Positions 3,807 through 4,022 of a DNA stretch of 7,711 nt are shown here, piece after piece. The notes beneath the pieces were generated by a model. That model was not told the origin of the DNA and ran no database searches. It saw only the letters and a list, made by a program, of their open reading frames with translations. The position numbers were made by a program, and so were the translations under genes. The first letter of the stretch is position 1; each line of letters begins with the position of its first letter. This DNA is from Escherichia coli (GTDB taxonomy: Bacteria > Pseudomonadota > Gammaproteobacteria > Enterobacterales > Enterobacteriaceae), in the NCBI RefSeq assembly GCF_003334255.1, contig NZ_QOWU01000094.1. The stretch is one strand, 5' to 3'.

Positions 3807-4022
3807 TTACTCTCCTCTCGCAGCCTTACGCCTGTCTTCTTTAATCTTGAAATAAAGATTTGTCAGATACGTCAGCAGGCCAAAAACCAGGCTACCCAGC
3901 ACACCGATTGCAGCCCACTGTGACGGAGTTACTTTATCGAGTAACTGCAATGCCCAGAAACCAGCATTACCCGCCGATGTGCCATAGGCAACACCTGTTG
4001 TTAACTTATCCATTGATTTCAT
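3807..4022 (-). CDS. essQ: Holin, S21-like pinholin class, 71 aa with dual-start motif
   Basis: [71 protein letters not shown]. Two predicted TMDs, the first Gly/Ala-rich. Charged C-terminus. Met1 and Met4 dual starts. Track ORF extends to a GTG at 4097. Confidence 0.85.

Follow-up and report, generated by a model that had tools for sequence, protein, structure and literature searches.

The essQ holin gene of a Qin-type Escherichia coli prophage begins with a probable phage 21 S-type dual-start motif

The start of essQ, the holin gene of a Qin-type defective lambdoid prophage in E. coli, is in all probability (about 0.8 by our own estimate) an intact copy of the phage 21 S gene's dual-start motif, from which one reading frame would yield both an antiholin and a pinholin. 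Our analysis confirms the dual-start motif of essQ as real, but as one that is already known. The initial annotation of the window (the whole stretch of 7,711 nucleotides analyzed here, contig NZ_QOWU01000094.1) had read M-K-S-M at positions 4011-4022 as the classical arrangement in which two start codons produce antiholin and holin forms differing by a few N-terminal residues. This reading is supported by the match of EssQ to the Pfam family PF04971, by its 83% identity to the phage 21 protein S21, by the annotation of phages 21 and 434, and by the conservation of both ATGs.

The motif is present at this position, though on the minus strand, a point left unstated before: read as the reverse complement, 4022..4011 is ATG AAA TCA ATG, which gives M-K-S-M. 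Translation from 4022 to 3807 on this strand yields EssQ, a protein of 71 amino acids, followed by a stop codon at 3807-3809. The identical sequence is annotated as essQ (b1556) in K-12 MG1655 (NC_000913.3). The codon of Met1 (ATG1) occupies 4020..4022 and that of Met4 (ATG4) 4011..4013, both on the minus strand. The long frame (3807..4022, minus strand, 71 codons plus stop) is predicted from its translation and from PF04971 to encode the antiholin form starting at Met1. The short frame (3807..4013, minus strand, 68 codons plus stop), whose homologues are annotated as the S21-68 CDS in OL657228.1 and the 'holin class II' CDS in OL657227.1, is accordingly predicted to encode the pinholin form, with Met4 as its first residue. 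Lys2 (AAA, 4017..4019, minus strand) provides an extra positive charge that is unique to the long form.

As a single occurrence, M-K-S-M is weak evidence. In the fetched loci, 438 mechanical ORFs reached 100 aa or more, and 9 of these (2%) had a Met as residue 3 or 4 following the initial ATG. It is because both ATGs are conserved among homologues that the essQ motif goes beyond chance. The same frame might also be read as part of a longer gene that begins at an in-frame GTG at 4097, since the frame is open from there to the stop at 3807 (a mechanical ORF of 96 aa); M-K-S-M would then be internal. However, the extension is not conserved: the sequences upstream of the relatives are unrelated, and several of them have stop codons 1-5 codons before ATG1. 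Moreover, the Pfam model begins at residue 5 of the 71-aa protein, the GTG has no Shine-Dalgarno (SD) sequence ahead of it, and the conserved SD and hairpin would themselves fall within the extension. On these grounds the ORF from GTG 4097 was rejected, and we consider a longer gene exceedingly improbable.

Judged by its sequence, EssQ clearly belongs with the phage 21 S holins. PF04971 (Phage_holin_2_1, 'Bacteriophage P21 holin S') was its only significant Pfam match, with an E-value of 4.9e-34, and residues 5-67 of EssQ aligned with positions 1-63 of the 64 in the model. EssQ also matched the PHROG holin families 9876 and 20. NCBIfam contains no model for an EssQ-type holin, and a PDB sequence search with EssQ returned spurious acetolactate synthase matches only, with no solved structure of a relative. 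The hydropathy profile of EssQ has two hydrophobic segments followed by a charged C-terminal tail, from which the topology is predicted. The first segment (TMD1, residues 8-27) has a mean hydropathy of 0.4 and consists to 60% of Gly, Ala, Ser or Thr; the second (TMD2, residues 36-57) has a mean hydropathy of 1.44. Both values are nearly identical to those of S21. TMD2 of EssQ carries G40, S44 and G48 as S21 does, and the residues I39-G40-V41-L42 were invariant in an alignment of six proteins. The glycine-zipper-like pattern G40xxxS44xxxG48 in TMD2 is a feature known from the S21 pinhole literature. By homology, EssQ would be a pinholin, i.e. a holin that forms small depolarising channels of ~2 nm.

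The closest comparison is with phage 21 itself. S21 belongs to the same family, is likewise 71 aa long and shares 83% identity with EssQ. Residues 1-6 (M-K-S-M-D-K) are identical in the two proteins, and their genes agree in all of the first 14 nucleotides. Like EssQ, S21 has two transmembrane segments with a TMD1 rich in Gly, Ala, Ser and Thr, the pattern G40xxxS44xxxG48, and the same charged C-terminal tail. In the curated phage 21 record (OL657228.1; CPT_21_66/67) the same two ATGs are labelled 'S21-71 product of dual start; antipinholin' and 'S21-68 ... pinholin', class II. In the phage 434 record (OL657227.1; CPT_434B_71/72) they are labelled antiholin and holin class II, with one ribosome-binding site (RBS) each. 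According to a review, a dual-start motif gives rise to both S21-68 and S21-71 (PMC9636201, citing Barenboim et al. 1999; see also PMC9671378), and it has been reported that phage 21 makes the two products in vivo and that the longer inhibits the shorter (Barenboim 1999 as cited in PMC9636201; GenBank notes). The S21 antiholin has an extra positive N-terminal residue, which alters its topology (PMC9636201). The S protein of phage 434 and EssD of DLP12 also start in the same way as EssQ.

The initial annotation had named both S21 and lambda S as precedents. The first of these holds, given the family match, the 83% identity and the annotated dual start; the second holds for the mechanism only, lambda S being of another holin family, unrelated to that of EssQ. 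Lambda S (S105 holin and S107 antiholin, starting M-K-M) shares with essQ two in-frame starts a few codons apart and a Lys present in the long form only (PMC9636201, PMC12283622). It also has an upstream RNA structure that affects the choice of start, as is predicted for essQ. However, it is a class I holin with three transmembrane segments that makes large holes for a soluble endolysin, while EssQ has two hydrophobic segments. The RNA structure at the start of lambda S is the sdi stem-loop.

We then compared the holin starts across the family. Relatives were drawn from IMG/VR viral contigs, from GenBank phages and from one genome per species (~60 loci), and the resulting set of ~147 loci comprised 58 distinct homologous proteins. 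The viral-contig relatives were all 93-100% identical, and the diversity of the set was supplied by the phage records and by the contigs of the species-representative genomes. Two ATGs, 1 or 2 codons apart, were found in all 58 distinct proteins. Both the residues between the two Mets and the spacing (MxM or MxxM) were variable: the starts were MYRM in 20 proteins, MRM in 12, MKSM in 11, MLRM in 7, MHRM in 3, MYQM in 2, MKM in 2 and MTM in 1. Nevertheless, a Lys or Arg was present between the two Mets in 55 of the 58. The second ATG and the basic residue between the starts thus appear, from this comparison, to be under selection. The exceptions to the basic residue include Stx phages. The S protein of Stx phage 933W is of the same family, ~80% identical to EssQ, with its ATGs at positions 1 and 4. 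In 933W (L086:1201-1212) and many other Stx phages the start is M-Y-Q-M, so that the long form of these phages would gain no positive charge.

The ATG pair was absent at three further loci: a truncated contig and two loci from which the upstream ATG alone has been lost, in E. albertii (L114, ~1500-1512, ATA CAT CAG ATG) and Regiella insecticola (L134, ~1497-1509, AGA CAG AGC ATG). Loss of the downstream ATG was seen at none of the ~147 loci. Because the upstream ATG is the only one ever lost, the short form appears indispensable, and this asymmetry fits an essential short product with the long product as an optional regulator.

In the course of the survey, near-identical enterobacterial or Stx-phage holin genes were also encountered on tiny, low-coverage contigs (L110, L111, L126, L092 and L095). 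The assemblies concerned are labelled as Terrisporobacter, Xanthomonas pisi, Alkalicoccobacillus and a 'Bacillota' MAG. These holin contigs are probably contamination.

The sequence just upstream of ATG1 contains two SD-like elements on the minus strand, which overlap each other. The upstream one, GGGGUGA (4027..4033), lies 7 nt before AUG1 as counted from its core and falls mostly in the 3' arm of the leader hairpin. The downstream one, GAGGA (4024..4028), is separated from AUG1 by 1 nt and from AUG4 by 10 nt. The duplex with the 3' tail of 16S rRNA was calculated at about -6 kcal/mol for GGGGUGA and about -6 kcal/mol for GAGGA. The position of GGGGUGA is that of the phage 434 RBS annotated 'for S71 antiholin product', and the position of GAGGA is that of the RBS annotated 'for S68 product'. 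In the predicted folds, the pairing probability of GGGGUGA was at least 0.95 for all contexts examined, and GAGGA was only about half paired.

These features bear on the simpler possibility that a single start is used in essQ, so that there is one product and no antiholin. Met4 would then be an ordinary residue of a protein started at Met1, or Met1 would lie in the untranslated leader of a protein started at Met4. Initiation at Met1 could be negligible, since the better SD, GAGGA, leaves just 1 nt to AUG1 and that codon is itself predicted to be paired; relatives with the downstream ATG only do exist, namely those in E. albertii and Regiella described above. Against this, GGGGUGA is correctly spaced for AUG1. 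Both ATGs have been kept in 58 of 58 proteins despite changing codons and spacing, nearly always with a basic residue between them, and in phage 21 the same MKSMDK start carries an experiment-based annotation of two products (PMC9636201). We therefore regard use of one start only as unlikely, and prefer the dual start, in which both ATGs of essQ would be used as they are in its homologue S21. As to essQ itself, the text of a Ribo-RET preprint makes no mention of the gene, and our literature search found no paper that connects essQ with holin work on Qin.

The initial annotation had pointed to a possible RNA stem-loop near the SD that would set the ratio of the two starts. Such a stem-loop was indeed predicted, at 4050..4028, and it recurs across the family. 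The leader before ATG1 reads CACC-AU-CCG-UGUACAU-CGG-GGUG-AGGAU-AUG. In the hairpin (4028..4050, minus strand), which was identified by the RNAfold minimum free energy (MFE) structure, by a covariance model and by family-wide pairing, CACC (4050-4047) pairs with GGUG (4031-4028) as the lower stem. An AU bulge follows CACC, and CCG (4044-4042) pairs with CGG (4034-4032) as the apical stem, closing a 7-nt loop (4041-4035). In addition, CAUAUU (4052..4057, minus strand) is the 5' strand of an outer helix in the MFE fold, pairing with GAUAUG (4025-4020) and thereby covering AUG1. This outer helix was present in all Qin-type leaders retrieved, and no covariation support was obtained for it.

The predicted fold depends on the length of the sequence taken. 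With up to +/-100 nt of context, the MFE structure contained the hairpin; at +/-150 nt, where an alternative fold of the leader competes, it did not. In contexts up to +/-100 nt, AUG1 was predicted to be paired at 0.90-0.99, and AUG4 was below AUG1; the values for AUG4 ranged from 0.07 to 0.49. At +/-150 nt the two codons were paired to about the same degree (0.38 versus 0.42). The essQ hairpin has an energy of -12.2 kcal/mol with a z-score of -0.34 relative to shuffled sequences, which is thermodynamically unexceptional when taken alone. Single-sequence fold energies as a whole gave z-scores from -1.6 to +1.5 against shuffles, and because they are not significant, thermodynamics alone was rejected as evidence for the hairpin. 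When the C-rich 5' part was shuffled, SD pairing was 0.63, compared with 0.71 for the observed sequence.

Evidence for the hairpin came instead from the comparison of leaders. With 39 leaders in an unfitted MAFFT alignment, RNAalifold gave no consensus structure, owing to the different loop lengths and bulges of the leader types. A covariance model (R1) was built from 15 leaders, all of them non-Qin, and searched against the ~198 kb of fetched loci. It matched 42 holin leaders and one further site, with E-values up to 0.3, and it found the window at 4020-4055 on the minus strand with 17.1 bits (E 0.01). The further site is a second weak match at L116:666-697 (13.8 bits, E 0.15) in Phytobacter diazotrophicus, ~800 nt upstream of the holin. 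In the alignment fitted to the model, which favours structure in the pair counts taken from it, 97.9% of the cells were paired, compared with 84% in shuffles and 27-62% with slid partners. Two apical pairs switch between GC and CG in 19 and 15 sequences (the latter 14 G-C and 1 A-U), with no broken cells, although these compensatory switches may reflect few evolutionary events. Complementary arms can be seen in all leader types, i.e. CACC-CGC/GCG-A-GGUG, CACUUCC/GGAGGUG, CUUCCG/CGGGAG, CACUCC/GGGGUG and CCCC/GGGG. Taken together, we regard the leader hairpin as real and conserved, and infer that it may have a regulatory effect.

The leaders of the known phages resemble that of essQ to different extents. 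Phage 21 also has a hairpin just upstream of its holin gene, with the SD in the 3' arm. However, it has one strong element, GGAGG at -12..-8 (about -9.5 kcal/mol), where essQ has two weaker overlapping ones, and the predicted outer helix that pairs AUG1 is a feature of essQ. In phage 21 an RNA stem-loop reportedly lowers the synthesis of S21-71, a finding said to go back to Barenboim et al. in 1999. The phage 434 hairpin (CACC-CGC...GCG-A-GGUG) has the same architecture as that of essQ, and in 434 S and essD of DLP12 two adjacent SD-like elements are found at the positions that they have in essQ. The order of these elements is swapped, GAGGU then GGGGU in 434 but GGGGU then GAGGA in essQ. In 434 the apical stem consists of CGC/GCG, in essQ of CCG/CGG, and the upstream sequences are unrelated beyond about -30. 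In 933W the SD-containing hairpin upstream of the holin gene has the arms CUUCCG/CGGGAG.

The window itself represents a Qin-type prophage: positions 71-7711 match the region annotated 'cryptic prophage Qin' in MG1655 (NC_000913.3) at 99.95%, and essQ with its leader (3807-4060) is identical to the MG1655 sequence. Positions 1 to ~75 are not Qin; their reverse complement resembles the terminal repeat of IS1 (…TGATGCTGCCAACTTACTGATTTAGTGTATGATGG…). Homology to K-12 begins at base 71, and an IS1 element is found here in the best-matching genomes.

Downstream of essQ lie ydfR, then the lysozyme gene rrrQ, and then the spanin gene rzpQ. The product of rrrQ (2961..3494, minus strand), the partner lysozyme, matched a PHROG endolysin family (E 9e-61) and has a weakly hydrophobic N-terminus. 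In BLASTP it was 33% identical to R21 (E 9e-22), with E35, D44 and T50 aligned with the phage 21 SAR endolysin. The sequence thus points to a SAR-like endolysin paired with essQ, and SAR behaviour is predicted. A SAR-type lysozyme and spanins also follow the holin in phage 21. In Qin, however, the setting is a defective prophage, and the extra gene ydfR stands between holin and lysozyme; R follows S directly in phages 21, 434 and 933W, with no ydfR counterpart between them. ydfR (3491-3802, minus strand) encodes a protein of 103 aa that matches PHROG families of unknown function.

Upstream of essQ, a pattern scan detected a strong terminator-like hairpin at 4475..4494 on the minus strand, downstream of cspB (AAACCCGC-TCAG-GCGGGTTT, followed by a T run), and no strong promoter match directly upstream of essQ. 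Further upstream lies ydfT, an intact gene for a Q-like antiterminator. Given the terminator-like hairpin, expression of essQ would depend on read-through, with ydfT presumably supplying the Q antitermination. The gap between cspB and essQ also holds ynfU (4239-4412) on the opposite (plus) strand, a gene for a small zinc-binding protein (NCBIfam NF038384, E 1e-22).

Because Qin is defective and a strong terminator-like hairpin lies upstream, essQ may rarely be expressed. It is quite conceivable, if somewhat short of an even chance, that the motif survives intact yet without a present function in a late operon that is not transcribed, a possibility that is compatible with the dual-start explanation. 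The annotation as a cryptic prophage, the IS1 end at one end of the window, the terminator-like hairpin and the result of the promoter scan all point this way. On the other hand, the gene, its leader and the endolysin and spanin frames are all intact, as is ydfT. Among E. coli replicon records, 1495 carry the start region at 99% identity or more, and the 71-nt start region is present in 1657 of 5426 complete E. coli genomes (~30%). The module is also carried by the complete phage record PhiR42_1, which shares 421 nt with the window, leader and start among them, at 100% identity. The presence in these genomes and the identity to PhiR42_1 indicate that the essQ module is not a decayed remnant.

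The dual-start reading suggests the following course of events. Once the late operon is transcribed, which in a defective prophage would itself be conditional, ribosomes would initiate at either ATG. AUG1 (4022-4020) would give the 71-residue protein and AUG4 (4013-4011) the 68-residue protein. By homology, the 68-residue form would be the pinholin: its weakly hydrophobic first transmembrane segment would exit the membrane, and its second segment, with G40xxxS44xxxG48, would assemble the small depolarising channels, which in turn would activate the membrane-tethered lysozyme RrrQ. The 71-residue form has three extra residues, Met-Lys-Ser, and the charge of Lys2 would keep its N-terminus in the cytoplasm. 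It is proposed that for this reason the long form acts as an antiholin that delays triggering, an inhibition expected by homology with S21-71. The ratio of the two forms is probably set by the leader RNA. The hairpin at 4050-4028 would sequester GGGGUGA, the element correctly spaced for AUG1, and the Qin-type outer helix would also pair AUG1. GAGGA and AUG4 would be more accessible, so that the short active form would be favoured.

The lysis cassette has cold-shock genes on both sides, cspB and cspF upstream and cspI downstream, and cspB, which lies between the holin and the Q gene, runs in the same direction as essQ. Leaders of the cspA thermoregulator type (Rfam RF01766) were found at 4760-5152 on the minus strand before cspB (158.8 bits) and at 1865-2250 on the minus strand before cspI (112.8 bits). 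One may also imagine the leader hairpin as a family-wide translational switch, with the Qin type responsive to temperature or to RNA chaperones; we hold this to be very doubtful. If it were true, Csp proteins or cold would alter the melting of the hairpin, the ratio of antiholin to holin would shift, and the timing of lysis would be coupled to temperature.

The family survey provides modest, non-experimental support for selection on the second ATG and the basic residue, for an indispensable short form and for an SD-occluding hairpin that accompanies the dual-start motif across Enterobacterales, and the current understanding of holin regulation is unchanged by it. For annotation, the point is that essQ, together with its many copies, is to be read as two nested products, an antiholin and a pinholin, in the same way as the genes of phages 21 and 434 are already annotated as a nested pair in their curated records.
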